Positions 4,730 to 63,572 of a DNA stretch of 64,000 nt are shown here, piece after piece. This DNA is from Bacilli bacterium (GTDB taxonomy: Bacteria; Bacillota_I; Bacilli_A; RF39; UBA660): assembly GCA_017936845.1 (NCBI GenBank), contig JAGBES010000021.1, positions 1,160-65,159 on the forward strand, written 5' to 3'. The position numbers were made by a program, and so were the translations under genes. The notes under the pieces were generated by a model. The model had not been told where the DNA came from and did not search any database. It worked only from the letters and a program-made list of their open reading frames with translations. Every line of letters begins with the position of its first letter. Position 1 is the stretch's first letter.

Positions 4730-6424
4730 TTATTTATTTTCTATTTCATATGGATTATTCCATGTACCATTTCCATTAGAAATAGTAAGATCATTTTTAA
4801 CTTTTATAACTGGGCGAACACCATTTCCATTATACACACTATGTTGCATACCAAAACCATTGCTATAAACACGCCATGCTTTTTTAGATTCATTAGTATA
4901 TTTATTCATTGTCCAATAATAAAATATATTATTACTTGTTGTTGTATAATTTTGAGTTAATATTGTTGAAGATTGTCCTGACAATATTTCTCCCATCCTT
5001 ATTAATCCTACTTTGGTTGATATTCCGTTTGTTTTTGCCAATGAATTTATATAACTAAACCCTTCTTCTATTTCATCGCCTTGATAATACATTGTTTTTA
5101 CTATCTTATTAGAATTTAATAAACCCAACCATCTTAATACATCACTGTTTAATGTTGCGCCTATTCCTGAATCTAATACAAATGTATTATTATCTCCATA
5201 AGGTATATAATCATCATAAAATCCATCTAATATTAGTTTTATTCCATCGCTTTCTTTACTTACTACTCTATATGTTTTTCCTTCTAGTTTTATATATTCT
5301 CCACTTGTTACATTTTCTCCTAGTGTCCCCGTTTTATCACTTTCTTTATTCTCTGAAAGTACATAGTAATTTGAAGTGGTACCATCACCTTTGGTGATAG
5401 TAGATGTAGAATCGACATTTATAACTGGGCGAACTCCGTAAGAATCAACTATGGAACAAGATACAGCTTTACCAGTAACATCAAAACTTTTAATAATAGA
5501 AACACTATCTGGTGTCATTGTCCAAAAAATTGGTCCTAATAAGTAAGAAGAAGTATTTTCTTTTGATAAATAATATTCATCATATGATATTATTCCTACT
5601 TTTGCTATTACTTTATTTTCACTTGTACATGTTGTTCTTGCTTTTGTAAAAAATTTTTCATTACAAAAGTATGCACCTTCTTTTATAATACTTTTAGTAC
5701 TATTTAAATTACCATAAAAATAATCATTCAACCAATCATTTATATATCCTTCATTTATTTTATATGTTAAAGCTGTATTATAATATCCATATGGCATTGT
5801 TGCTATATTTTCATCTGTTATTAATCTTACTGTACCATCACTATTTATTCCCATGATTCTCCACATAAATCCATTATACCATACATAGTTATTTGTACTT
5901 GTTCCTTTTATATAACAACCATCCATATAGTTATATGTTCCACTTGTTTTACATGCTCCATTTTCATATACTAATGCTTTAGCTTTTTCTAATATTGGAT
6001 CTCCTTTAAGTACTACTTCTTCATTATTTGAACTATCACAAGCTCCATTTGTTTTTGCTTCTTTTCCATCATATTCTACATTATAATTATTTATACAAAG
6101 TGTTGCTTTTGTTATTCTTCCTTTTGTTATTGTTATTTTTCCACTTGTTGGTTTTGTTCCTTTTAATTTTACTTTATCTTCTATTGTTGTTATATCTATA
6201 TTTTCTCCGTCTTCTATTTTTGGATATTTTGTACTATCTAGCATACTCATTGAATTATTATATTCGATTGCTTCTATATAACCATATGCACTATCTACTG
6301 ATGCACTCTTTTTTGAATTATTTATCATATTTAATATTATTGGGGTTGCAATTAAAGCTATAATTGCTAGTATTACTATTACGGCTAGTAATTCTATTAA
6401 TGTAAATCCTTTTTTATTCTTCAT
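4730..6424 (-). CDS. modular type IV pilin-like protein 1 (prepilin N-terminal methylation domain plus two repeated C-terminal modules)
   Basis: MKNKKG|FTLIELLAVIVILAIIALIA: class III signal with Gly-1, Phe+1 and Glu+5. Pilin module of about 130 aa ending in a Cys pair. Two modules of about 200 aa each end in GVRPVI(N/K)V and contain W/YR..DG..(R/K)LI, KVG(I/L)I..E and (F/Y)WTM, a pattern I associate with DUF6273-type domains. Confidence 0.8.
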   Translation of the reverse strand: MKNKKGFTLIELLAVIVILAIIALIATPIILNMINNSKKSASVDSAYGYIEAIEYNNSMSMLDSTKYPKIEDGENIDITTIEDKVKLKGTKPTSGKITITKGRITKATLCINNYNVEYDGKEAKTNGACDSSNNEEVVLKGDPILEKAKALVYENGACKTSGTYNYMDGCYIKGTSTNNYVWYNGFMWRIMGINSDGTVRLITDENIATMPYGYYNTALTYKINEGYINDWLNDYFYGNLNSTKSIIKEGAYFCNEKFFTKARTTCTSENKVIAKVGIISYDEYYLSKENTSSYLLGPIFWTMTPDSVSIIKSFDVTGKAVSCSIVDSYGVRPVINVDSTSTITKGDGTTSNYYVLSENKESDKTGTLGENVTSGEYIKLEGKTYRVVSKESDGIKLILDGFYDDYIPYGDNNTFVLDSGIGATLNSDVLRWLGLLNSNKIVKTMYYQGDEIEEGFSYINSLAKTNGISTKVGLIRMGEILSGQSSTILTQNYTTTSNNIFYYWTMNKYTNESKKAWRVYSNGFGMQHSVYNGNGVRPVIKVKNDLTISNGNGTWNNPYEIENK

Positions 6425-14288: not shown

Positions 14289-16133
14289 TTAATCAGTTAC
14301 AGTCATATCATAAACTCCACCAGACTCATTGAAATAATAGTAAATAGCATGTGCACCATTTGGAATTACAAATGAATTTGTAGTTGTTCTAAAATCACCT
14401 ATATCTTTTACAACTTTTCCACCTATTGAATCATAGAAAGTAAGATATTGATATCCTTTTGATTTTATGTTTAACTTTTTTCCCCATGCACTTTCATCGA
14501 TATATATATATTTAGTAGTTTTATTAGTAGCTGAATAAAATGTAGATTTATCAGGATCTTCATCATAAGCTAATTGGCCTATTGCATCAGAAGGCAACGT
14601 TGCTATATATTCATATGTTTTCACTTCACTTGTTTCATTATTAGTTGTTTCTATAAATATTTTTTGACCAGCATTCATATATATAAGATCTGAATTATAA
14701 TTTTTATACTCTCCATTATCTATTTTATATTTTGTAGGATGAGAATATATTATTTCTATATATTCACCACCATTTTTAATTCCAGTTGATGTTATAGTTG
14801 GATATTCATATTTTTTCGTAATAATTTCATTAAAAAATTCAACTGGGCTTACCTCATATACTTGACAGGAATAACCTATATAAAATAATAAATATCTTGC
14901 ATTACTTGGAACATAATATTCCGTATTAACTGTTGCTAAATTTGCTAAAGTAACTTTAGTATTAGATATTTCCTCCTTATTTACATTTAAAAACACATGA
15001 TAAATTATATCGCTTGAATTATTATCGCGCCATTTTATTTTTATTTTTTTATTTTGCATTTCATCAGAAATTCTAAGATAAACATTTTTATTTGTTAAAT
15101 TTGTACCATATGTAGCTGTATTTTCATCTCCATCATATAAATTAGGGTAAAAAGTTTTATCTCTTGATGATTCACTTTCTATAATATCTGCTTCTACTGT
15201 TTCACTTTCTCTCTTGCTTCCATCTCTTACTAATTTTGCCTTAATTTTTGTTCCTGCTTTGGGTATTTCTTTAGTATATTTTTTCCATGTTTTACCATTA
15301 TCTAAACTATAATAAGCACTTGTTCCTTCTTGTTTTTCAAAATCAATTCCAATTACTTCTTTCATTTCTATTCCATTACTATATATAATTGGTGTAGATG
15401 ATAAATCTATAATAGTTGGTTTTCCTAATTCAACATTATCTATTTTAGTTTCTTCATAATTTTTTAAAGATATTTTTTTGTTATCTTTTATTATCCATGC
15501 TGATATTTTAGAGTTTTTTTGTAGTTTTAATGTTACTACATTATTTGTTGCTTTTATTTCTTCTCCATTTGTTATTTCTGATTCTCCTAATAATACTTTT
15601 CCACTTTCTACTTTGTAATAATATTCATAATTTCCTTTAGGATATGTTATAGTTAAATTTTTTGAAGTTTCCCAATTAAACGAATCAATTGTAAAATCTA
15701 CTATTAAAGATATATCCTCACAATTATTACTTGTTAAGGTTGCTACTCCACCAGTATATTCTACTATATAATCTTTCATACATAATATAGCAGATCCTAC
15801 TGTTCCATTTTCTAATATAGTTATTGTTCCAGCAGTAGGTTTTATTCCTTTCAAATCAATCAAATTATTAATTTTATCATATTGCTTATCACCAATAGCA
15901 GTATTTCTATTTACTCCATATTGTCCTTTTGATAATTTATCTTTATTCTTTAATAAATTTTCCGATTGATAAAGTTCTACAGCATTTATATAACCATATG
16001 TACTATTAACTGCAGCATTTTTTTTTGCATCGTTTATCATATTTAATATTATTGGGGTTGCTATTAAAGCAATAATTGCTAATATTATTATAACTGCTAA
16101 TAATTCTATAAGTGTGAAACCTTTTTGCTTCAT
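14289..16133 (-). CDS. modular type IV pilin-like protein 2 (pilin module plus Ig-like and discoidin/CBM-like modules)
   Basis: MKQKG|FTLIELLAVIIILAIIALIA. The pilin module is homologous to that of gene 1. The C-terminal part has YYSLDNGKTWKKY (chitobiase/Fn3-associated-like) and two stretches resembling F5/8 type C domains (NLYDGDENTATYG..., LAYDEDPDKSTFY...). Confidence 0.8.
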   Translation of the reverse strand: MKQKGFTLIELLAVIIILAIIALIATPIILNMINDAKKNAAVNSTYGYINAVELYQSENLLKNKDKLSKGQYGVNRNTAIGDKQYDKINNLIDLKGIKPTAGTITILENGTVGSAILCMKDYIVEYTGGVATLTSNNCEDISLIVDFTIDSFNWETSKNLTITYPKGNYEYYYKVESGKVLLGESEITNGEEIKATNNVVTLKLQKNSKISAWIIKDNKKISLKNYEETKIDNVELGKPTIIDLSSTPIIYSNGIEMKEVIGIDFEKQEGTSAYYSLDNGKTWKKYTKEIPKAGTKIKAKLVRDGSKRESETVEADIIESESSRDKTFYPNLYDGDENTATYGTNLTNKNVYLRISDEMQNKKIKIKWRDNNSSDIIYHVFLNVNKEEISNTKVTLANLATVNTEYYVPSNARYLLFYIGYSCQVYEVSPVEFFNEIITKKYEYPTITSTGIKNGGEYIEIIYSHPTKYKIDNGEYKNYNSDLIYMNAGQKIFIETTNNETSEVKTYEYIATLPSDAIGQLAYDEDPDKSTFYSATNKTTKYIYIDESAWGKKLNIKSKGYQYLTFYDSIGGKVVKDIGDFRTTTNSFVIPNGAHAIYYYFNESGGVYDMTVTD

Positions 16134-19294: not shown

Positions 19295-20545
19295 CTACTT
19301 TGTTCTTTTATACATATAAACAGTTATATATGGATCTAATACACTAAATGGTGTACTACTTCCTGTTACTTCTGTATCACTTTTTGTTCCAGCAAATGTA
19401 CTTGTTACTGTTCCTGCTGCTGTTACTGAATGTGTATGCGTTGTATTACTTAAAGATACTGTTCCTTTTGCTGTTACTGTATGAGTATGTGCTCCTCCAC
19501 TTAATGTTCCATCAATCCATCTAGCATATGGATAAGCAGAATCTCCTTTTATATATTGTGCTTGCCATTCATATCCTGTTTTTGTACCACTTGGCCAAGC
19601 AAGTATCTTTTGTTCAAATGTGTGAGTATGACTTCCATTACTTGATGTTGTTGCACTACTTCCTGAAAACGTTGCAGTTGGAGTAACACTATTATTTCCT
19701 GTTGTAACTTTATTACCTGTAAATGTACTTGTTACTGTTCCTGATGGTGTATATAAATGTGAATGTGGTGGTAAATTTACATCTGCAAGTGAAATATTTC
19801 CTTCTGTTCCGCCTTCTTTATTTGCTTCTTTTGTTGTTCCTCTTAATACTTTTCCATCTCCATAGCTTTCCCATTCTCCACCTAAGGCATTTTTTACTTC
19901 TTCGGCTGTTTTTAAACTTGTTGATACATATATGCTTCCTACTGGATATATTTTATTTAAAGCATTTTCCGTTCCTACTTCATTATTGTTAATTTTTTCT
20001 TTTAAATCTTTATTATCTTTTTCTAACTCATCTACTCTACTTGATAGTTTTGTTATTGTTGATATTATATCATTTGATTCTTCTGAATTTAAATCATCTG
20101 ATGAAGCTGTAAGTAAACATATATCATCACTATTTAATGATAATAATTTTACTATGTTTTCTTTATAATTCTTTTTAGCACATATTTTTTCATCTATTGC
20201 TACTACAAATGTATCGCCTTTATTTGTTATTTCTACTCTTCCTTTTTTAGGAATTTTTCCTTTTACTGATAATTTTTTTACATCTTCTTCGTTACTTAAA
20301 TTAAATGATATATATTTTTCATTTGTTATTTTATTTGTTTTCCAATCTATTTCTTTACCATGTATTTGTTCCATTGATAGATAATTTTCTGCTGCTTTTA
20401 CTAATGTATATGTTGAATCTTTTAATGCACTTTTTTTAGCATCACTTACTATATTTAATATTAATGGTATTGCTATAAGTGCTATTACCGATAATATTAC
20501 TATGACTGCTAATAACTCTACTAATGTAAAACCTTTTTTTCTCAT
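19295..20545 (-). CDS. type IV pilin-like protein 3 with coiled coil and phage tail-fibre-like C-terminal domain
   Basis: True start is probably M20 (ATG 20545): MRKKG|FTLVELLAVIVILSVIALIA. Pilin module with a Cys pair, a coiled coil (ITKLSSRVDELEKDNKDLKEKI), then IYPVGSIYVS...GGEWESYG and four HxH motifs (HSH, HTH, HTH, HTH) with repeated GTVTSTF(T/A)G. Confidence 0.8.
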   Translation of the reverse strand: MRKKGFTLVELLAVIVILSVIALIAIPLILNIVSDAKKSALKDSTYTLVKAAENYLSMEQIHGKEIDWKTNKITNEKYISFNLSNEEDVKKLSVKGKIPKKGRVEITNKGDTFVVAIDEKICAKKNYKENIVKLLSLNSDDICLLTASSDDLNSEESNDIISTITKLSSRVDELEKDNKDLKEKINNNEVGTENALNKIYPVGSIYVSTSLKTAEEVKNALGGEWESYGDGKVLRGTTKEANKEGGTEGNISLADVNLPPHSHLYTPSGTVTSTFTGNKVTTGNNSVTPTATFSGSSATTSSNGSHTHTFEQKILAWPSGTKTGYEWQAQYIKGDSAYPYARWIDGTLSGGAHTHTVTAKGTVSLSNTTHTHSVTAAGTVTSTFAGTKSDTEVTGSSTPFSVLDPYITVYMYKRTK

Positions 20546-20604
20546 TTTGTTAACCCTACTTTCTACTATAACTAGTATACAATAAATAAATTTATTTTTC
20601 AATA

Positions 20605-20632
20605 TAATAAAAGAGGATTAATTATCCTCTTT
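20605..20632 (-). terminator. terminator between the micro-protein genes and pilin-like gene 3
   Basis: 9-bp stem AAAGAGGAT/ATCCTCTTT followed by TTTTATTAT on the minus strand. Confidence 0.6.
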
Positions 20633-20756
20633 ACCATGCTAAACATGAACCTAATATTATAGCAAGTAAGATATATAATACAATTATGATTATATATCCG
20701 TTACCACAACAATGTCCATGACTTACAGTTTCATTGCAGCTATTTTGACAAGACAT
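20631..20756 (-). CDS. YjcZ-like tiny membrane protein with Cys/His-rich head (41 aa)
   Basis: Hand-translated: MSCQNSCNETVSHGHCCGNGYIIIIVLYILLAIILGSCLAW. RBS GGAGG 8 nt upstream. Below the ORF-track cutoff. Confidence 0.55.
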   Translation of the reverse strand: MSCQNSCNETVSHGHCCGNGYIIIIVLYILLAIILGSCLAW

Positions 20757-20774: not shown

Positions 20775-20858
20775 TTAAATATAAGCTCCTAGTATTATGA
20801 TTAAAAGAATAAATAAAACTAAAACAATAGCAGCTCCTGATACACCTGAGTTACACAT
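20775..20858 (-). CDS. YjcZ-family tiny sporulation membrane protein (27 aa)
   Basis: Hand-translated: MCNSGVSGAAIVLVLFILLIIILGAYI. RBS GGAGGA. The (F)A(L)IVVLFILLII core is the hallmark of the Bacillus YjcZ / tiny-TM family. Confidence 0.6.
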   Translation of the reverse strand: MCNSGVSGAAIVLVLFILLIIILGAYI

Positions 20859-20995
20859 ATATAACATTCCTCCTTTTTTTATCTTTTCACATTATTTTAT
20901 GGAAATTTTTTTATTATGTGATTACTTATGTTTATTTTCTTGTAATTTAATGTATTTTTTGATAATATATATATATAGTTTAAAGGAGGATATTT

Positions 20996-50680: not shown

Positions 50681-51670
50681 TTGAAAAAAATATTATTTTC
50701 ACTAGGTATTGTTTTAATAGCAGTCATAATTGCTTTAACAATATTTATGTGTACTAGAAAAGAAAGTAATCTAAAGAAAATAAAAGTTGCTGAAGTTACA
50801 CACTCTGTTTTTTATGCACCACAATATGTAGCTCATTCATTAGGATATTATGAAGATGAAGGATTAGATGTTGAAATAATATTAACACCAGGAGCTGATG
50901 CTGTTGCAGCTGCTGTATTATCTGGCGATGTACAAATAGGATTTTGTGGAAGTGAACAAACAATATATATATATAATCAAGGTGAAAAAGATTATTTAAT
51001 TAATTTTTCTGCACTTACTAAAAAAGATGGAAGTTTCCTAATTTCAAGAAAAGAAAATAAAAACTTCAAAATTACAGATTTAAAAGGTAGTCATATAATT
51101 GCTGGTAGAAAAGGTGGAATGCCTTCTATGACTTTGAAATGGGCATTAAATCAAAATGGTATAAATACTGATAAAGATTTAAATTTTGATACAAGTATTG
51201 CTTTTGCATCTATGAATGGTGCATTTATAGGAGGAACTGGTGACTATGTAACAGCTTTTGAACCTTCAGCTTCACAATTAGTTAAACAAGGATATGGTTA
51301 TATTGTAGCTTCAATAGGTGAATTAGGTGGGAATGTACCATATACAACTTATAATGCTAGAAAAAGCTATATAAATAAAAATAAAGATGTTATAGAAGGA
51401 TTTACAAAAGCTACTAAAAGAGGACTTGACTATGTTCATAATCATACTGCTAAAGAAATTGCTAATACAATTACTTCATACTTTCCAGATGTTTCATATA
51501 ATGAACTAGTTAATGCAATAGAGAAATATAAAAATATAGATTCATGGTATGAAACAACAGAAATAAATGAAAAAGATTTTAATCATATACAAGAAATTAT
51601 AAAAAATGATAATGAACTTGATAAAAAAGCACCTTTTGATAAATTAGTAGATAACTCATTTTCTAAATAA
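50681..51670 (+). CDS. ABC transporter substrate-binding protein (NMT1/SsuA/ThiY-like)
   Basis: N-terminal anchor. Periplasmic-binding fold resembling the sulfonate/nitrate/HMP family (VTHSVFYAPQYVA, GADAVAAAVLSG). No riboswitch is recognisable upstream. Confidence 0.7.
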   Translation: MKKILFSLGIVLIAVIIALTIFMCTRKESNLKKIKVAEVTHSVFYAPQYVAHSLGYYEDEGLDVEIILTPGADAVAAAVLSGDVQIGFCGSEQTIYIYNQGEKDYLINFSALTKKDGSFLISRKENKNFKITDLKGSHIIAGRKGGMPSMTLKWALNQNGINTDKDLNFDTSIAFASMNGAFIGGTGDYVTAFEPSASQLVKQGYGYIVASIGELGGNVPYTTYNARKSYINKNKDVIEGFTKATKRGLDYVHNHTAKEIANTITSYFPDVSYNELVNAIEKYKNIDSWYETTEINEKDFNHIQEIIKNDNELDKKAPFDKLVDNSFSK

Positions 51671-52089
51671 TGAATAAAATATTAGAAGTTAAAAATTTAA
51701 GAAAAATTTATCACACTAAAAAAGATGAAATATTAGCTGTTGATGATTTTTCTTTTGATTTATATAAAGGTGAATTTGTTTCAATAGTTGGTCCTAGCGG
51801 TTGTGGCAAAAGTACCATTTTGTCAATATTATGTAATCTTATTGATCATAGTGACGGAAAAATAAAATTTAATAATGATTCAAAAATTGGATATATGTTA
51901 CAAGATGATAGTTTATTTGATTTTAGAAATATTTTAAGCAATTGTCTAATAGGATTAGAGATTAATAAAAATTTAAATCAAGAAAATAAAGAATATGTAG
52001 AAAAGTTATTAAAAGATTATGGATTATACGAATTTAAAGATAAATATCCAGATAATTTATCTGGTGGAATGAGACAGAGAGTTGTATGA
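51670..52089 (+). pseudogene. 5' part of an ABC transporter ATPase gene, cut after the signature motif by an inserted element
   Basis: Walker A GPSGCGKST, Q-loop, signature LSGGMRQRV, then V-stop supplied by foreign sequence. Walker B and the H-loop are missing here and are found at 63805-64000. Confidence 0.85.
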
Positions 52090-52104
52090 AGTTAGTATAG
52101 ACAC
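52078..52104. repeat. attL: 7-bp core AGAGTTG (52078-52084) plus element-internal arm AGTATAGACAC (52094-52104)
   Basis: The core is repeated at 63808-63814. The arm is the perfect reverse complement of 63789-63799. Confidence 0.75.
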
Positions 52105-52152
52105 AAGTGTAATAATTAGGATTTGCTTATAACCATTATAGATAAAGGAGAA

Positions 52153-52554
52153 ATGATTATTATGTTATTAGAAAATAATACAGAAAAAGTAATTGATTTA
52201 ATAGATAAATTTGATAAATTAAATGATAAAGATAAAATCAGATTAGCAATATATATAATGGAAAATAAAAGTTTTAATACTACATTTAATATAAGAGATA
52301 TAATTATTCTTTTAAAAGAAGTAATGGATATACTTGATGATAGTTATTTAAAAACAATAGTTAATTTTAGTAAATATGAAAAATTATTATTGTTATCCTC
52401 AAAATATTTAGAACTATCTGAAAATGAAAAGAAATGTTTCACAGTTGAAATGTTATTTAATATTTACGAAAATGATTTTAATAATAAGATTATAAATGCA
52501 GAAATTAATAGGAACTTGCTAATATATGATTATTGTTATTCTGTAATAAATTAA
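52153..52554 (+). CDS. hypothetical protein (element cargo)
   Basis: ORF behind an AAAGGAG RBS. The start is ambiguous (52153 or 52162). Helical-looking, no motif. Confidence 0.4.
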   Translation: MIIMLLENNTEKVIDLIDKFDKLNDKDKIRLAIYIMENKSFNTTFNIRDIIILLKEVMDILDDSYLKTIVNFSKYEKLLLLSSKYLELSENEKKCFTVEMLFNIYENDFNNKIINAEINRNLLIYDYCYSVIN

Positions 52555-56747: not shown

Positions 56748-57488
56748 TTATTCATTATCTTCTAAAAAATAATTAACAAGTTTCTCATAATTATCTTGGC
56801 TATTTAAGCAAGTATCAATTAAATAACCTTTTACATTATTTGTTTGATATTCTTTTATTCCTCTTATATAAAAATCTTTATTTCTATCTTCTATATAGAA
56901 AGGCATAATATCATTATATAAACATTCTCTAAACATTATCATTCTACCAACTCTACCATTTCCATCTTGGAATGGGTGAATCTTCTCAAATCTAACATGA
57001 AATTCAATAATGTCTTCAATACTTTTTTTATCAATTTTATCGTACCAATTCATTAATTCTTTCATGTCATTTTGAACATTATTTGGTAATGATGTAGTAA
57101 TATTTCCAACAAAGTTTTTTCTTTTTTTATAATCTCCAACATTAAACCATTCTTTTTCACTATCAGTTAAAGTTCCATCTTTTAAGATAAAATGAAATTT
57201 TTTTATCATATCTTCTGATAATTTATCATCTATTGTATCTAACATATATTTAAATAAAGTAAAATGATTTTTTGTTTCAGTAGCATCTTTTAATACTATT
57301 ACTTTTTCACTACTTGTTAAAATAGTTCCTGTATCATAAATACTTGCTGTTTCATCTGGAGTAATAGTTGAACCTTCAATATGATTAGTATTATATGCAA
57401 AATCAAGTTGTGTCTTATGATAAAGACTACCAGATAAATTCATGTTTTTTTGTTCTATTAAAGCTTTCTTAATATCTTTTACTTCCAT
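56748..57488 (-). CDS. Fic/Fido domain protein (class II, N-terminal inhibitory motif)
   Basis: Active-site motif HPFQDGNGRVGR. N-terminal TNHIEG fits the (S/T)xxxE(G/N) inhibitory motif. Start at ATG 57488 (AAAGGAAAGGAG RBS). Confidence 0.85.
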   Translation of the reverse strand: MEVKDIKKALIEQKNMNLSGSLYHKTQLDFAYNTNHIEGSTITPDETASIYDTGTILTSSEKVIVLKDATETKNHFTLFKYMLDTIDDKLSEDMIKKFHFILKDGTLTDSEKEWFNVGDYKKRKNFVGNITTSLPNNVQNDMKELMNWYDKIDKKSIEDIIEFHVRFEKIHPFQDGNGRVGRMIMFRECLYNDIMPFYIEDRNKDFYIRGIKEYQTNNVKGYLIDTCLNSQDNYEKLVNYFLEDNE

Positions 57489-57489
57489 A

Positions 57490-57939
57490 TTATTCTCCTT
57501 TCCTTTTATTGAAAGTTTTTTCAATAAGTTCTTTTGTTTCTTTATTAGCACTATATACTGATAAATAATTAAATAATAAGGCAATAGTTAAAAGTGAATA
57601 AGTGAATATAATTACATATATATTACTTTTAATACTACTTTGTATCATTTCTAAAAACATTACGCTTAAATACATTAAACCACTTAATACTATTATAATA
57701 GCAGTAGCATCATCAAATGATCTTTTAATTGACTTAGATTTATTATGGTCTAAATCAATTCCAATTCTACTCCAAGTATGTACATAAAACACTTCACAAA
57801 TTAACATTAATGATACTAATATCCAGTATATAGCACACGCTATATCTTTTTTAGTGATTAAATATATTACCATTGCAAATAGTAATAAAATGTTTGTAAT
57901 TATAACTAGATATTTACTTAAATTAATTTTTCTTTGCAT
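57490..57939 (-). CDS. 4-TM membrane protein, translationally coupled between the repressor and fic
   Basis: AAGGAGG RBS before ATG 57939. The stop is 1 nt before the fic ATG. Four hydrophobic helices. Confidence 0.5.
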   Translation of the reverse strand: MQRKINLSKYLVIITNILLLFAMVIYLITKKDIACAIYWILVSLMLICEVFYVHTWSRIGIDLDHNKSKSIKRSFDDATAIIIVLSGLMYLSVMFLEMIQSSIKSNIYVIIFTYSLLTIALLFNYLSVYSANKETKELIEKTFNKRKGE

Positions 57940-58435
57940 TTTCAATTGCCTCCTTTCTTCTAGCACTTTCTAACACATTAATAATTTCCTTACTTGTAGA
58001 TATTTGATATTCGGTATCTTCTATAGTTTGTTCCATCACTTCTTTTTCAGTATCAGGAATATTATCATTTGTTAGTTTTTGTTTAAATGATTCAACTAGT
58101 TCTTCCCAGTTTTTAATCATTGCAGAGGTATTTAAAATTGCATCTACTATTTGGTCTCCTTTTAAACTTGAATAATAGTTTGTTAAAAAAGGATTTAATG
58201 GAGTAACTTGAAAACCAAGACCAGCAGCATACATTAAGTCATTGTAATTAATATCAATATATTTACTTATCTTTCTTAATGTTTTAGGATTAGGTATTTC
58301 TCTTTCGCCTGATTCTATACGAGCAAGTTCGGTATCACTAATATTGGCAAGTCTTGAAAGTTCTCTTTTAGATATACCTTTTTTTTCTCTTGCTTCAGCA
58401 ATAATTTCTCCAACGCTTTTGTCATTTTGTATCAT
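57923..58435 (-). CDS. XRE-family HTH regulator (CI-like repressor candidate of the element)
   Basis: GISKRELSRLANISDTELARIESGER HTH plus a C-terminal domain of about 100 aa. Transcribed divergently from the replication/mobilization genes. Confidence 0.8.
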   Translation of the reverse strand: MIQNDKSVGEIIAEAREKKGISKRELSRLANISDTELARIESGEREIPNPKTLRKISKYIDINYNDLMYAAGLGFQVTPLNPFLTNYYSSLKGDQIVDAILNTSAMIKNWEELVESFKQKLTNDNIPDTEKEVMEQTIEDTEYQISTSKEIINVLESARRKEAIENAKKN

Positions 58436-58460
58436 GGTACATTGCCCCTTTCGTAGTTAT

Positions 58461-58605
58461 AATATACCATATTTTTAGCAATAATTCAACTTTTTTGAAG
58501 AAATTTTATTATTTTTGCAACTTTTTAGTTGACATTTGCATTTTTAAAGTGTATATTCAACTTATAAGTTGCATTTGTCGTAGATTTGCAACTTATGTAT
58601 AGTTG
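58461..58605. promoter_or_regulatory. divergent promoter/operator switch region of the element
   Basis: Leftward TTGAAT-N17-TATATT (58489-58461). Rightward TTGACA-N17-TATATT (58529-58557). Three CAACT..AGTTG inverted repeats at 58518-58531, 58558-58571 (a perfect 14-bp palindrome) and 58589-58605. Confidence 0.5.
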
Positions 58606-58763
58606 TTTGAAAATCTCATAGAGTTGGATATTGTAAGCGCCGTAAATTGCCGACTCGTAAAACAAATTACAAAGGTGCCTAGTAATAACCCTATTGGTAC
58701 GGGAGTTGTTGATTATCTAAAATCATCAATAATAGCAAAAAAAATAATGAAAGGAGGAATCTA

Positions 58764-59714
58764 ATGAAATCTTTAGGAGAAATAAAAAATAGCATAAAAA
58801 AAGACTTCATTGTAAATGGAATGTTGAAGTCTGAAGGTGTTTATTGTTTAGTTGCATTACCTAAAGTTGGAAAGTCTATGTTAGCACTACAACTTTCTGA
58901 CTCAATAGCAAACAACAAACAATTTTTAGGATTTGAAATTAAACCTTCACCTGTTCTTTATGTTAGCACAGAAAATTCTGGGAGTCAATTATATGAAAGA
59001 ACAAAACTTATGAATATTGAATTTACTGATGACAATTTTAAATTTATAGATAGAAATCAATATCCAGTATTTTATTTAAGAGATTTGGAATATGATATAA
59101 AACAATTTTCAGAGTCTGGTGGTAAATTATTAATTATAGATATGATAAAAGATATTAAATTTGATAAAAAAATTGAAACTAATAGTTATGACGATATAGG
59201 ACAAGTTGCTATTCCAAAATTAAGAGAATACTGTTATAAATATCATTTAACAATTTTGTTTGTTCATCATTTAAATAAAAAAGGTAAATCATTAGGATCA
59301 ACTGCTTATGATGGTGCTGTTGACGGAATATTAAGATTAACTCAAAGTAGTGTGGATAAAAAAAGGTATAGATTAGTAGTTGATAATAGAGATTATGAAG
59401 GATTAGATTTATCTTTAATTAAAGATGATAAATGTATTTTATCAGTTTGTCATGAAGAAGATGATGAAGAAGAATTAGATATAAATTTAGTTTTATTGAT
59501 TAAATATGCTATTTCAAAAATAGAATTTGAATTCACTTGTTCAAGTATTATTAAAGATTTAAATTTAACAATCACACCAAAAAGATTTGGCAAACTTTTA
59601 AATTCAAATATTAAAAGATTAGAATGTGAAGGTCTTCATATTATAAGTAATAGAGTTAGTAATGCTCGTAAATATATTGCTAAATATGAAGAACCTATTA
59701 TAGAAAATGAATAA
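58764..59714 (+). CDS. RecA-fold ATPase (RepA/AAA_25-like replication or helicase-loader protein)
   Basis: Walker A LPKVGKSM, Walker B LLIIDMI, and LFVHHLNKKG, typical of RepA-like proteins of mobile elements. Confidence 0.6.
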   Translation: MKSLGEIKNSIKKDFIVNGMLKSEGVYCLVALPKVGKSMLALQLSDSIANNKQFLGFEIKPSPVLYVSTENSGSQLYERTKLMNIEFTDDNFKFIDRNQYPVFYLRDLEYDIKQFSESGGKLLIIDMIKDIKFDKKIETNSYDDIGQVAIPKLREYCYKYHLTILFVHHLNKKGKSLGSTAYDGAVDGILRLTQSSVDKKRYRLVVDNRDYEGLDLSLIKDDKCILSVCHEEDDEEELDINLVLLIKYAISKIEFEFTCSSIIKDLNLTITPKRFGKLLNSNIKRLECEGLHIISNRVSNARKYIAKYEEPIIENE

Positions 59715-59822
59715 TTTTCTATTAAAGTTTTTGATAACTTTTTTCTAAAAAGTTAGTAAAAAATGAACGAGGCACGTTTTGTGAGTTTACTCATGAAAGT
59801 GACGATAGTGAATATTTTTACA

Positions 59823-60002
59823 ATTATTAAAATAGAAACTAATCTATTTTAATAATAAATTAAATAATAAGTATCTAGTAGATAGTTATTATTTAATCTT
59901 GTTTGTAGCATTACACCTTTACTCTTGTTTAGGTGTATTTGCGTAAAACAAGCATGGTTTTTTAGGGTATCCCTAAACTCACGTGGGCTATGCCCTAGTG
60001 AG
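59823..60002. repeat. cluster of inverted repeats upstream of the relaxase gene (candidate oriT and/or single-strand origin)
   Basis: 14-bp perfect IR 59823-59836/59843-59856. 16-bp IR with one mismatch at 59862-59894. Smaller GC-containing hairpins at 59913-59936, 59961-59977 and 59978-60002. Confidence 0.35.
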
Positions 60003-60055
60003 ATATGTCAATAAATGACCAATTCATCTAAATAAGTATATCAAGGAGGTAATAA

Positions 60056-61507
60056 ATGTATGATGGAAAGCAAGTAATTAGATTTGAAAATAAATTTAAA
60101 GCCAAAGATTTAGGTGGACTCGGTATAGAATTAGTTAAAAGAAAAGGTACAGGAAACTATGACAAAGATAGAACAAAATTTAATACGTCTTATGTACCAC
60201 TCTCTAAAACTACTCTACAAGAACAAGTTTATTCTAAATTAAAAGAAAATGAAATATATTATAATGATAGCAAGAATGTTAACTTATTAAATGGTGCTAT
60301 CGTAACAAGTGGTAAAGAGTTCTTTACCAGTTTAGGAATGAATTTTATAGATAGTGGTAGAAAAGTTCAAAAAGGGAAAAACAAAGGAAAACCTATTCTA
60401 GTTCCTGATATTAAATCTGAAAATGATATACCAGAAAAAGTTAAACAATTTTTTGATGATAGTTATATATTTTTAGAAAATCTTGTTGGTAAGGAAAATA
60501 TAGTTTATGCAGAAGTTCATTATGATGAAGATACACCACATATGCACTTCTATTTTCTTCCAGTAGTTGATAAGGTAAAAAGAAAAGTATTTGAAACCGA
60601 TGAAAATGGTAAAATTTTATATCGAGAAGGTATTGATAAAAATGGTAATACAAAAATGGTTCCTATACAAAAGAAAGACGAAAAAGGAAAAAATGTGTAT
60701 AACATTGAAACTGGTAAATTTTTAAATTGTGATCACTTTTGGAAACAATTAGGTGGGAAAGCATCTTTTGCTAAAATTCAAGATGACTTTAATGATTATA
60801 TAACAAAGAAAGGTTTTAATCTTGATCGTGGTAATATAGGTGGTAATGCCCATCATATAACTAAAAATGAAAAAATCGTCATGGATTTACAAGAACAAAT
60901 AGATGATATGAAAAAGGAATTACAAAAAAATCAAAAATTAAACAATATAGAATTAGATACTAATAAAGAATTTAAAGATATAGAAACTAATGATATTTTA
61001 AATCCAGTTAAAAGAAAAATAGTGGGTTATAAGGATGAAGATATAAATAAATTAATTGAATATTCTAAATCGACTGGTAAAGAAAATTCTAAAAATAAAA
61101 ATATAATCCGTAAAAAAGATAGTTTGATTAATGATTTAAATTTAGAAATAAACTTATTACAAAGTGAAAATGCTAAATTAAAAGATGGTCGTGGTATTAA
61201 AGAAAGAGATACTATTATAGAAGAACAAAAAGTTAAAATAAATAGTTTAAGTAATTTGATAAAACAAAAAGATAAAATCATTGAAAGTCTAGAAGATAAG
61301 ATTGATAAACTACAAGAGTCTTTTGAAAAATTTAAAAATAAAATGTATACCTTATGCGATAAATTTTGTAAAGCTATTTCTCATCTAGTTGGTAAACATG
61401 ATATTGAAGAAGATGAAATTGATTATGATATGTTTGAATATCACGCAGACAATATTATCCATAAATACGAAAAAAAGGAAATTGATAAAGATGATTTTTG
61501 CTTATAA
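60056..61507 (+). CDS. MobV (Mob/Pre) family relaxase
   Basis: Motif III HYDEDTPHMHFYFLPV (HxDE...PHxH). N-terminal K.K..LGG....R.....N.D..R...N layout. Long C-terminal coiled coil. I could not find the motif I His of HxxR at the expected spot. Confidence 0.75.
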   Translation: MYDGKQVIRFENKFKAKDLGGLGIELVKRKGTGNYDKDRTKFNTSYVPLSKTTLQEQVYSKLKENEIYYNDSKNVNLLNGAIVTSGKEFFTSLGMNFIDSGRKVQKGKNKGKPILVPDIKSENDIPEKVKQFFDDSYIFLENLVGKENIVYAEVHYDEDTPHMHFYFLPVVDKVKRKVFETDENGKILYREGIDKNGNTKMVPIQKKDEKGKNVYNIETGKFLNCDHFWKQLGGKASFAKIQDDFNDYITKKGFNLDRGNIGGNAHHITKNEKIVMDLQEQIDDMKKELQKNQKLNNIELDTNKEFKDIETNDILNPVKRKIVGYKDEDINKLIEYSKSTGKENSKNKNIIRKKDSLINDLNLEINLLQSENAKLKDGRGIKERDTIIEEQKVKINSLSNLIKQKDKIIESLEDKIDKLQESFEKFKNKMYTLCDKFCKAISHLVGKHDIEEDEIDYDMFEYHADNIIHKYEKKEIDKDDFCL

Positions 61508-61736
61508 AATACCATGTTCTTATATTCTCTATGATAAACATTGTAATCTAGTTATTAAAACAAATAATAATATAAATCATAAAATGTATAAAAATATATC
61601 TTTTTTAATAAATGTACCAAATAAAATAATGAATAAAGTTAAAATGAAATATGATTGGAGGATTGGTAATATGAGAAAAAACTATATAAATAACACATAC
61701 TATGATTACAAATGTTTTATTAAATTCTTAACATAA
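61491..61736 (+). CDS. possible small protein (81 aa) downstream of mob
   Basis: In-frame ATG inside track ORF 61389-61736, beginning just before the mob stop. Weak RBS. Confidence 0.2.
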   Translation: MIFAYKIPCSYILYDKHCNLVIKTNNNINHKMYKNISFLINVPNKIMNKVKMKYDWRIGNMRKNYINNTYYDYKCFIKFLT

Positions 61737-61961
61737 ATCTGATAGGAGGAATTATTATAAACATTCAGTACAATGTTATTGATATTATAAGTAAAACTAT
61801 AACTGAAGTAGATTTAAAAGAACAAATAAATAAAAAATTATTCAAAATAATTGAAATGTTAGAACTTAAAGGATAATAAATGAAATTTATTTGTTATAAT
61901 GTAATTGGTTATAAGTTTAACTTAAATCCTAATTATTGCCTAAGTATTGGAGGTAATAGTT

Positions 61962-63572
61962 ATGAATGAAATGGAGAGTGTTAAGAAAAAGGTATATAGA
62001 GTTGGTATTTATTTAAGATTATCTGATGAAGATAGAGATAAGCAAAATAAATTAGATGATAGTGAGTCAATTAAAAATCAAAGACATTTACTAATGATGG
62101 AAATTGATAAACACGATGATTTTATATTAGTTGATGAATATTCAGATGAAGATTTATCTGGTGCAGGAACTTATAGACCCGAATTTGAAAGATTGATAAA
62201 AGATTGTGAAGATGGGAAAATAGATATCGTTATATGTAAGAGTCAATCAAGATTTTCTAGGGATATGGAAGTAATTGAAAAATATATTCATAATAAATTT
62301 ATTGAGTGGGGAGTTAGATTTATAGGTCTTGCTGACAATGCTGATACAAATGTTGCAGGTAATAAAAAATCTCGTCAAATAAATGGACTTGTTAATGAAT
62401 GGTTTTTAGAAGATACTTCTAATAATATTCGTAGTGCTTTTAATGCTAAAATGCGTAAGGGAGAATTTATTTCCCCTTTCGCAGCATTTGGGTATGAAGT
62501 TGATAAAGATGATAATAATAAATTAGTTGTTGATCCAGTTGCTTCAGAAGTAGTTAAAGAAATATTTGAACTATATTTAAAAGGTTTAGGATTTACAGGT
62601 ATTGCAAAATATTTAAATAATAAAAAAATACCCTGTCCTTCTCTTTATAAGTATCAAAAAGGAATTAAACTTAATGTAATAAGTAATCGCCCTAGAGAAC
62701 AAATAAAATGGACTACAAACGCTATAAAAACAATTCTTTCAAATGAATTATATATAGGTAATTTAGTTCAAGGAAAAAGGACCACTGTTAGTTATAAAAA
62801 TCATAAAATTAAAAATAAAGATAAAAATGAATGGATTCGTATAGAAAATACACATGAAGCTATTATTGATAAAGAAACTTTTAACAAAACACAAATTGCG
62901 ATGCAAGAAAGAACTAAACCATCTACTAAAACGGGAACAATTCACAATTTTTCTGGTAAAGTGTTTTGTCTAGAATGTAATCATTATATGAGAAAGAAAA
63001 ATTCTAGTAAACATGAATATCTAGTATGTTCTAACAATCGTGATGGATATGATGATTGTATAAATAAAGATTCTATTAGATATGATTTATTAGAAAATAT
63101 TATTCTAGAAGCAATTAATAGTAAAATAAAAAAATACTATGATGAAGTTAAATTAGATAATCTTGTACAAACTAAAAAAAATAATCGTTTCGAAAGTAAA
63201 ATTAATGCTTTAGAAAAAAGAAAAAATGATGTAAATAAAAAAATAGCACAAACTAGAAAATATCTACAAAGTCTTTATGAAGATAAAGTTAATGGTGTTA
63301 TAACAAATGAGCAATTTAAAGATTTAATTGGTGATTATAATAAAAATGAAGATATATATACTAATCAAATAAAAGAAATTGATGAAGAAATTAATTATTA
63401 TAAAGCCAAACAAGATAGTTCGTTAAATTATAAAGAAATTTTTAGTAAGTACGAAACTCTTGAAAGTCTAAATAGGGTTATTATTGATGAATTTGTTGAT
63501 AAAATCTTTATTGGAAAATTAGATAAAGAAAATAATAAAAGAGATATTCAAATAAAATGGAACTTTGAGTGA
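61962..63572 (+). CDS. large serine recombinase (resolvase/invertase N-domain + recombinase + zinc-ribbon + coiled coil)
   Basis: VGIYLRLSDEDRD (catalytic Ser), SRFSRD, the Cys cluster C..C...C.....C, and a long C-terminal coiled coil. ATG 61962 follows a GGAGG RBS. TGTTATAAT extended -10 at 61892-61900. Confidence 0.9.
   Translation: MNEMESVKKKVYRVGIYLRLSDEDRDKQNKLDDSESIKNQRHLLMMEIDKHDDFILVDEYSDEDLSGAGTYRPEFERLIKDCEDGKIDIVICKSQSRFSRDMEVIEKYIHNKFIEWGVRFIGLADNADTNVAGNKKSRQINGLVNEWFLEDTSNNIRSAFNAKMRKGEFISPFAAFGYEVDKDDNNKLVVDPVASEVVKEIFELYLKGLGFTGIAKYLNNKKIPCPSLYKYQKGIKLNVISNRPREQIKWTTNAIKTILSNELYIGNLVQGKRTTVSYKNHKIKNKDKNEWIRIENTHEAIIDKETFNKTQIAMQERTKPSTKTGTIHNFSGKVFCLECNHYMRKKNSSKHEYLVCSNNRDGYDDCINKDSIRYDLLENIILEAINSKIKKYYDEVKLDNLVQTKKNNRFESKINALEKRKNDVNKKIAQTRKYLQSLYEDKVNGVITNEQFKDLIGDYNKNEDIYTNQIKEIDEEINYYKAKQDSSLNYKEIFSKYETLESLNRVIIDEFVDKIFIGKLDKENNKRDIQIKWNFE

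Follow-up and report, generated by a model that had tools for sequence, protein, structure and literature searches.

The window analyzed here is a 64,000-nucleotide stretch of contig JAGBES010000021.1, from the assembly of an uncultured gut Bacilli bacterium (GCA_017936845.1). It carries on its minus strand a gene for a 416-residue protein that joins a type IV pilin to a fibre end of the kind found in phages. The N-terminal half is a canonical prepilin signal followed by a predicted pilin fold. The C-terminal 226 residues are, by sequence comparison, a phage-type fibre end in which a Gp10_C collar domain is split by an insert bearing HxH motifs. The fusion is real, widespread and undescribed, yet it falls within the established idea of pilins that carry grafted modules. 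Somewhat better than evenly, we favor a modular minor pilin that assembles as a homotrimer at the tip of a pilus and acts there as an adhesin. The parts of the gene and its immediate signals are as follows.

19295 to 20545, minus strand: modular prepilin-type gene, 416 residues plus a TAG stop (open reading frame translation and Pfam).
20531 to 20545, minus strand: leader MRKKG of a class III (prepilin) signal peptide, with cleavage predicted after Gly5.
20126 to 20530, minus strand: pilin module, residues 6-140, with a hydrophobic alpha1 helix, Glu at mature position 5 and then a small beta-sheet globule (AlphaFold2 model and sequence match).
19976 to 20125, minus strand: linker and heptad coiled coil, residues 141-190, with the helix at 155-187 (AlphaFold2 model and homologue lengths).
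19751 to 19975, minus strand: N-terminal half of the collar-type Gp10_C domain, residues 191-265, ending NLPPHSH, with HxH-1 at nucleotides 19757-19765 (Pfam and alignment with T4 gp10).
19376 to 19750, minus strand: insert in Gp10_C, residues 266-390 (homologue alignments, and gp37 topology from PMC6957217), with a predicted ascending stem from residue 266 to about 310, a hypervariable distal knob at about 310-350 and a descending stem at about 350-390.
19622 to 19630, minus strand: HxH-2, on the ascending Ser/Thr/Gly strand of the insert, which also carries GTVTSTFTG.
19481 to 19489 and 19430 to 19438, minus strand: HxH-3 and HxH-4, on the descending strand of the insert, which also carries GTVTSTFAG.
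19298 to 19375, minus strand: C-terminal half of Gp10_C, residues 391-416, ending ..FSVLDPYITVYMYKRTK (alignment with the T4 gp10 C-terminus).
20574 to 20602, minus strand: sigma-70-type promoter-like site TTGAAA-17-TATACT, about 29 nucleotides upstream of the ATG (consensus match only, 10/12).
20610 to 20632, minus strand: terminator-like hairpin closing the upstream small-peptide gene (sequence signal).

Pilin, Stalk and Fibre End in One Polypeptide

The longest mechanical open reading frame extends to a TTG at 20602. The ATG at 20545 yields a protein that begins MRKKG, then FTLVELL, and its translation is MRKKGFTLVELL. This start is common to all 40 homologues in our alignment, which are full-length fusion proteins sharing 30-85% identity overall. 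The sequence-only reading from which we started had allowed for a misassigned start; the shared start and the promoter-like site above it show that it is not misassigned, and every string which that reading quoted was located in the 416-residue protein. The terminator-like hairpin behind the upstream gene implies that the modular pilin gene has its own transcription start. Judged by this predicted promoter and terminator, the gene is probably monocistronic.

The same reading took the N-terminus to be that of a type IV pilin, and profile and structure searches support this. The signal peptide reads MRKKG followed by FTLVELLAVIVILSVIALIAIP, with a short basic leader, Gly-1, Phe+1, Glu+5 and a hydrophobic helix of some 55 residues, the full set of marks of a prepilin-peptidase substrate and filament subunit. 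The Pfam model N_methyl (30.3 bits, cut-off 21.2) and TIGR02532 (31.3 bits, cut-off 16.3) both match the protein above their thresholds, and the ComGC, ComGE, PilA and GspG models match it below theirs. A phmmer search of solved structures gave Streptococcus sanguinis PilE1 as the best hit (8pfb, E 2.5e-7, residues 6-95). A further pilin structure, 9lab, matched at 2.4e-6, and MshA, geopilin and PilA were among the closest. The AlphaFold2 model, a monomer prediction built on 86 homologues, places a helix at residues 8-62 and strands at 77-136, with a predicted local distance difference test score (pLDDT) of 86-96, mostly >90. The predicted structure thus has the long N-terminal helix on an antiparallel beta-sheet that marks the pilin fold. 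Residues G5, F6, T7, L8, E10, L11 and L12 are invariant in the 40 homologues; cleavage by prepilin peptidase and the packing of filaments depend on these residues. Cys122 lies within the pilin module, and Cys143, just past it, is a possible disulfide partner.

A heptad coiled coil had been proposed to follow the pilin, and the segment quoted for it maps to residues 164-185, inside the predicted helix. The a and d positions are occupied by I164, L167, V171, L174, N178, L181 and I185. Stalk length differs among homologues by exactly +7 and +14 residues with the heptad register kept, which is the behavior of a real coiled coil. The linker at residues 137-155 was modeled with lower confidence and may be flexible.

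The block IYPVGSIYVS...GGEWESYGDGKVLRG lies at residues 199-236, beyond the stalk. Pfam Gp10_C (PF21939) matches at 47.5 bits (cut-off 27), and positions 2-139 of its 139-position profile are stretched across residues 196-415, which indicates that about 80 residues have been inserted. The PHROG 'tail protein' family 6465 also matches (E 1e-8). Two profiles were used in structure searches: A3, of the C-terminal region, and A4, of the HxH insert alone. Profile A3 aligned with T4 gp10 (2fkk, E 3.9e-11) via both terminal blocks. The first of these in gp10 is IYPIGTIY..GSW..GQGKVLVG..GGS..NLP and the second, at its very end, is PYITVYRW, so that the tip and gp10 share the pattern IYPxGxIY...GxW...NLP and PYITVYxW. 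The C-terminus of the tip aligns with that of gp10, IQPYITVYRWIRI, and P405, V409 and R414 are invariant in the 40 homologues. Other matches of A3 were the long tail fibre of cyanophage A-1(L) (8kec, 3.7e-4), the T4 gp37 tip (2xgf, 1.8e-3) and the Pa223 fibre (9nxk, 3.2e-3). A Foldseek search of the Protein Data Bank (PDB) with the full model returned T4 gp10 first, with probabilities of 1.0 and 0.98. A gp37 fragment was matched by Foldseek only at E 4.7e-3, with a probability of 0.30. The template modeling scores are low because the monomer model of such a chain is extended. Against BFVD, E<1e-3 was reached by 20 viral proteins, of which the named ones are baseplate, tail-fibre or tail proteins and one endoglucanase. 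The Gp10_C match, the gp10 profile alignment and the phage matches in Foldseek bear out the earlier proposal that this region is related to phage fibre or receptor-binding domains.

Four HxH motifs are present, at residues 261-263, 306-308, 353-355 and 370-372, and they contain eight of the nine histidines of the protein. Four or more such motifs arose in 3/200,000 shuffles of the C-terminal 229 residues. The sequence-only reading was right in the number of motifs but not in describing them as regularly spaced: they lie 45, 47 and 17 residues apart and form two pairs that flank a central non-repeat segment. The repeated GTVTSTF(T/A)G unit was found as described, at residues 269-277 and 378-386, six residues after each outer HxH. 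Conservation of the histidines, which that reading had left to be checked, is high. At least 90% of the 40 fusion homologues carry H261 and H263, and at least 90% of 86 relatives carry H353, H355, H370 and H372. The number of HxH motifs per homologue ranges from 2 to 8 (40/40 homologues).

The arrangement resembles that of the T4 long tail fibre protein gp37 (2XGF). In gp37, domain D10 (residues 811-881 and 1010-1026) adopts the collar fold of gp10, gp11 and gp12 and carries the stem-and-tip domain D11 as an insertion (PMC6957217). Seven iron ions are held by histidines in D11 (PMC6957217; PMC11705849). In both proteins a collar domain is split by a stem with HxH motifs on both strands and a receptor-binding knob, putative in the window protein, in mid-chain. 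The sequence of the window protein has this layout, with the motifs at 261 and 306 on one side of the knob and those at 353 and 370 on the other, inserted in the collar. Profile A4 gave gp37 as its best PDB match (E 6.7e-4), with the HxH motifs in register on either side of the central non-repeat stretch. A single-sequence PDB search with the HxH region returned chance matches only, and the relation to gp37 is visible at the profile level alone. The window protein differs from gp37 in having four HxH motifs against seven iron sites, a shorter stem, about 20% identity and a pilin in place of the fibre shaft. It also lies outside any phage context, and its neighborhood lacks a gp38/gp57A-type chaperone gene. 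At the level of sequence, then, the split collar matches the gp37 fibre tip, and the likely three-dimensional structure is extrapolated from it. The relation appears to be one of shared topology with marginal sequence significance.

Distribution, Mosaic Structure and the Phage Question

A full-length profile searched against 1.84 billion representatives returned 919 proteins at E<1e-30. End-to-end coverage is seen in about 20 of the best 150 matches, and 8/10 partial matches examined also contain N_methyl and Gp10_C. The fusion is seen in dozens of protein clusters from uncultured gut "Bacilli," down to 30% identity. N_methyl and Gp10_C on a single polypeptide, in a combination conserved across many clusters, identify the protein as a modular pilin. 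All relatives in the species-representative genome set come from uncultured gut metagenome-assembled genomes (MAGs) assigned to 'Bacilli', 'Tenericutes/Mycoplasmatota' or Erysipelotrichaceae, and several of these MAGs hold multiple loci. One family member is named 'hypothetical protein [Bacilli bacterium]' by NCBI.

Comparison within the family shows modules that vary separately. P0002 and P0003 have pilin modules 99-100% identical to that of the window protein and are only 22-24% identical to it over residues 301-350. P0010 is the converse mosaic, with a pilin globule that is 33% identical and a collar half that is 78% identical. The same pilin and coiled-coil scaffold bears unrelated C-terminal modules in P0032 and P0205, and stalk length varies widely (e.g., P0086 and P0170). 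These mosaics, exchanged tips and variable stalks indicate that the pilin scaffold, the length of the coiled coil and the tip recombine independently, as in phage fibres. A separate observation concerns a tandem pair of genes (L091, 12-2704), in which the fusion gene P0013 is followed by P0030 with almost the same tip. P0030 has a degenerate prepilin motif (KFTLLV, without Gly-1 and Glu+5) and a shortened pilin module, which would fit either a duplicate undergoing decay or a copy that acts as a reservoir of the tip.

The same tip also occurs without a pilin. The proteins P0034 and P0102, found in the same gut Bacilli, have a tip of the same architecture and HxH layout, about 50% identical to that of the window protein and likewise chromosomal, placed behind an ordinary Sec signal peptide for export. 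They have neither the pilin module nor the heptad stalk. About 2.7 kb from the P0034 gene are a sortase gene and, next to it, a SpaA-type pilin gene (L084, 10001-15502), which implies that the lineage also has sortase-type pili.

The window is chromosomal DNA of low GC content (~23%) from a spore-former. Locally the genes run in the order SMC, a 614-residue prepilin-type gene, spoVAE-AD-AC, yutD, yunB, the modular pilin gene, two tiny peptides, prsA, a deacetylase and an M29 peptidase. This order, including yunB/spoVA, is kept around a 66%-identical homologue from a Hadza gut metagenome. More distant homologues adjoin ftsAZ/uvrA/mutL, EF-Tu, ClpC, trigger factor or femAB/enolase. No phage gene was found within 10-20 kb in seven contexts (six of the fusion and one of the Sec-signal form P0034), where the neighbors are housekeeping genes only. 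A link to sporulation was considered and rejected: the yunB/spoVA neighborhood is found only in close relatives, and the promoter looks sigma-A-like. The two tiny open reading frames directly upstream of the pilin gene, at 20631-20756 (minus strand) and about 20785-20868 (minus strand), have Cys/Gly-rich heads and very hydrophobic tails (MSCQNSCNETVSHGHCCGNGYIIIIVLYILLAIILGSCLAW and MCNSGVSGAAIVLVLFILLIIILGAYI). A Pfam scan of the first gave zero matches.

Because the C-terminal module belongs to a family best known in phage baseplates and fibres, the gene might be thought a prophage remnant, or a tail-fibre gene with a wrong or accidentally fused N-terminus. Phages do carry the Gp10_C domain with HxH motifs (median 3). 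This explanation is scarcely credible, however, in the face of the seven housekeeping contexts, the yunB/spoVA synteny kept with the 66%-identical homologue, the conservation of the fusion in dozens of clusters down to 30% identity and the gene's own promoter-like site after an upstream terminator. The pilin part is also absent from viral homologues: the prepilin motif was found in 0/71 viral open reading frames with the YPVGSIY block, compared with 8/20 cellular ones. Context, conservation and gene signals effectively refute the remnant, and the concern in the sequence-only reading that homologues might prove to be prophage-encoded can be set aside. The domain is common in phage tails and baseplates, but with phage genes absent from all seven contexts the protein does not classify as a tail or baseplate component. 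A close phage donor of the tip was likewise sought and rejected. The tip is 25-42% identical to cultured phages and 23-48% identical to IMG/VR contigs, and with a best identity of 48% no recent transfer is detectable.

Three further loci in and around the window were noted. The region to the left of the window holds housekeeping genes and a holin/M23 pair. On the 205-kb contig of the same organism, just past the left end of the window (L085, 14169-15249), a Phage_holin_5_2 gene precedes one for an M23 peptidase, and no further phage genes lie near the two; the pair could be a stand-alone lysis or sporulation-related cassette. Positions 56748-63572 of the window encode a Fic protein, an AAA_25 (RepA-like) protein, a Mob_Pre relaxase and a large serine recombinase, and the GC skew changes sign at about 58 kb. 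This cluster looks like a small integrative mobilizable element at the window edge. Finally, at 51670-52554 on the plus strand, a 139-residue open reading frame that matches just the N-terminal portion of an ABC ATPase precedes one of 143 residues without a match. A frameshift or sequencing error has probably divided a single ABC ATPase gene here.

Placement of the Fibre on the Cell

In the arrangement we favor, the prepilin leader would be cleaved and the protein inserted into a type 4 filament. The pilin globule leads through a short linker into the four-heptad coiled coil and from there into the fibre end. The insert would run up the HxH strands, form the hypervariable distal knob and return down past two more HxH motifs. 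By homology with gp10 and gp37, three chains are expected to intertwine. A trimer would then contain four metal ions on its threefold axis, one at each HxH triplet. A trimeric module would be too bulky for the pilus shaft, which suggests that the filament begins with a turn made of three copies, in the manner of homotrimeric CofB in enterotoxigenic Escherichia coli (ETEC), and that these stay at the tip. The variable knob at the distal end would be the adhesin or receptor-binding surface. The most plausible ligand, to judge from fibre tips, is a glycan on the surface of the host or of a different bacterium.

The sequence-only reading saw a conflict between an obligately trimeric fibre tip and a pilin that enters a helical filament as a monomer. 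There is precedent for such a combination, and it shows that a pilin can physically be a trimer. The ETEC minor pilin CofB (CFA/III) has been demonstrated to be a homotrimer at the pilus tip (PMC6048534), and CofB and Vibrio cholerae TcpB are both homotrimeric type IVb minor pilins at the pilus tip (PMC6048534, PMC9565799, PMC10120004). Like the window protein, they consist of a pilin domain, a linker and beta-rich C-terminal domains. In CofB and TcpB these domains trimerize, and the trimer initiates assembly and binds at the tip. CofB and TcpB are of type IVb, are encoded in pilus operons and have an H-type lectin fold, whereas the window protein has a 5-residue type IVa/Com-like leader, a coiled coil, a phage-type stem that putatively binds metal and a stand-alone gene. 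We use the comparison as an analogy of mechanism only.

Several observations weigh against a trimer at a pilus tip. No assembly ATPase, platform protein or prepilin peptidase was identified by Pfam in 48 open reading frames of the window. Motif scans for the T2SSE Walker A and Asp boxes and for A24 GxGDxK, covering the window and 86 related pilin loci (1.24 Mb), revealed no convincing pilus machinery. The leader is short, as in type IVa/Com pilins, whereas CofB belongs to a type IVb system, and neither sequence nor fold searches of the PDB returned CofB or TcpB, so that homology with them finds no support. The core of the coiled coil (Ile/Val at a, Leu at d and one Asn at a) is no indicator of a trimer by itself. 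The sequence match to gp37 is marginal (1.8e-3 and 6.7e-4) and carries strong compositional bias. Foldseek with a C-terminal-only model was weak, with gp10 at the top (probability 0.8, E 0.06); beyond gp10, this monomer model of a presumed trimer matched mostly beta-hairpin pore toxins. The insert has a pLDDT of about 50 in monomer models. Such a low value is expected for a chain that folds only in the trimer, and is no proof of one.

The window contains two more large prepilin-type genes in addition to the modular pilin gene:

14289 to 16133, minus strand: second large prepilin-type gene, 614 residues, with a nearly identical alpha1 helix and nothing recognizable beyond N_methyl.
4730 to 6424, minus strand: third large prepilin-type gene, 564 residues, with N_methyl and a weak DUF6273 match.

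The N-terminal helices of both proteins are nearly identical to that of the modular pilin, and both genes stand alone among housekeeping genes. The 64 kb thus hold three large prepilin-type genes, scattered singly. The 614-residue gene is syntenic in a relative, and its product is likely a fellow subunit of the same filament system. A 'Tenericutes' MAG (L018, 9986-11677) has three tandem, nearly identical pilin genes of 150-159 residues. Their products have the typical size of major pilins and the N-terminus of the large modular pilins, and no assembly genes adjoin them. Major-pilin genes with the same N-terminus in related MAGs imply that a filament exists.

The main rival to a pilin at the tip is a trimeric fibre anchored to the cell, one of the two options named in the sequence-only reading. 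The class III signal would then serve for export or anchoring only, with or without cleavage. Three chains would be held together by the coiled coil and the tip, and the protein would be a free-standing lectin-like spike that projects through the wall. We consider this rather improbable, yet it is favored by the lack of pilus machinery near the window gene and the 86 related loci, and by large prepilin-type genes scattered singly among housekeeping genes, three of them in the window. The Sec-signal proteins P0034 and P0102 add to its case, since the same tip behind a Sec signal means that pilus display is not required for tip function. In archaea, class III signals are also found on surface proteins that form no filaments, e.g., the sugar-binding proteins of Sulfolobus, and this too counts for an anchored spike. 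What speaks against it is the invariance in 40 homologues of Gly-1, Phe+1 and especially Glu+5, together with a pilin globule that is conserved and confidently predicted. Conservation of this kind is hard to explain for a simple anchor. The 150-residue major-pilin genes with the same N-terminus in related MAGs (L018) point away from it as well.

If the protein does enter a filament, it could instead decorate the shaft, with single copies along the pilus and the fibre dangling sideways, either monomeric or trimerizing with its neighbors. The linker at residues 137-155, modeled with lower confidence and possibly flexible, would suit such an arrangement, and a location in the filament body is conceivable given a flexible enough linker (PMC8179133). 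The homologous gp10 and gp37 domains, however, are intertwined trimers (PDB titles; PMC6957217), and along a pilus adjacent subunits are staggered, with major pilins between them. The coiled coil speaks for chains that are parallel and in register. A shaft subunit is therefore, in our judgment, quite unlikely.

A different function for the tip is also conceivable, that of a decoy. In this case a host-encoded copy of a phage tip on the cell surface would occupy or shield the receptor used by the phages of the lineage, and the knob would track phage specificity. The hypervariable knob on a conserved scaffold, the exchange of modules in the manner of an arms race and the relation of the tip to phage fibres that must recognize Gram-positive surfaces would all suit a decoy. 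Set against this, the idea is conjectural, the closest phage tip found is at most 48% identical, and adhesins under selection by hosts or competitors vary alike. We regard a masking role as very unlikely, and an adhesin borne at the pilus tip as the better account of the knob.

Known Modular Pilins and Significance

Modular type IV pilins are an established and highly diverse class. A 2021 catalog (Raynaud et al.) lists 264 architectures, among them a pilin joined to a phage tailspike S74 chaperone domain (29 proteins) and one pilin joined to a phage tail collar protein, and display at the tip was proposed for modular pilins in general (PMC8179133). The combination of a pilin with a Gp10_C/HxH module is not in that list (PMC8179133 and its dataset), and a literature search for a pilin-Gp10_C fusion found no description. 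The sequence-only reading knew of no described fusion of pilin and fibre tip; this holds for the present module but not for the class, which already includes phage-type modules. In S. sanguinis PilB, with its vWA module, and PilC, with its lectin module, the same IPR012902/N_methyl module precedes a module foreign to pili. Like the window protein, these are proteins of monoderms with a predicted location at the tip and an adhesin role. They differ in that their modules are joined to the pilin by a short loop, whereas the phage-type fibre end of the window protein is joined by a coiled coil. The window module is, moreover, expected to be an obligate trimer, and its gene lies outside a pil locus.

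If confirmed, the window protein would be, to our knowledge, the first case of a gp37-like metal-stabilized needle outside a phage tail or tailocin, carried on a pilus subunit. It would also be a second independent solution, after CofB/TcpB, to the placing of a threefold adhesin on a one-start helical filament. The boundaries between scaffold and tip are natural swap points, and could serve in the engineering of pilus-displayed binders.

More tentatively, and as a possibility that we would not yet call probable, the type IV pilins of uncultured gut Bacilli may be a general launching platform for phage-style receptor-binding fibres. Each genome would hold a repertoire of scattered prepilin genes, each made up of a pilin scaffold, a heptad stalk whose length can be adjusted and a trimeric tip that is hypervariable and exchangeable. 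If so, the repertoire would evolve by shuffling of modules as in tail fibres and would set which cells or glycans the pilus grasps; DNA donors, prey, partners and host mucus are candidate targets. It would be a bacterial counterpart of the host-range determinants of phages, and genes might pass by this route between phage fibres and pilus adhesins. Variation of the tip between strains with almost identical scaffolds is the signature of a specificity determinant, and the tips could indicate what these bacteria bind in the gut. The family points to an unexplored surface-recognition repertoire in abundant uncultured gut Bacilli.

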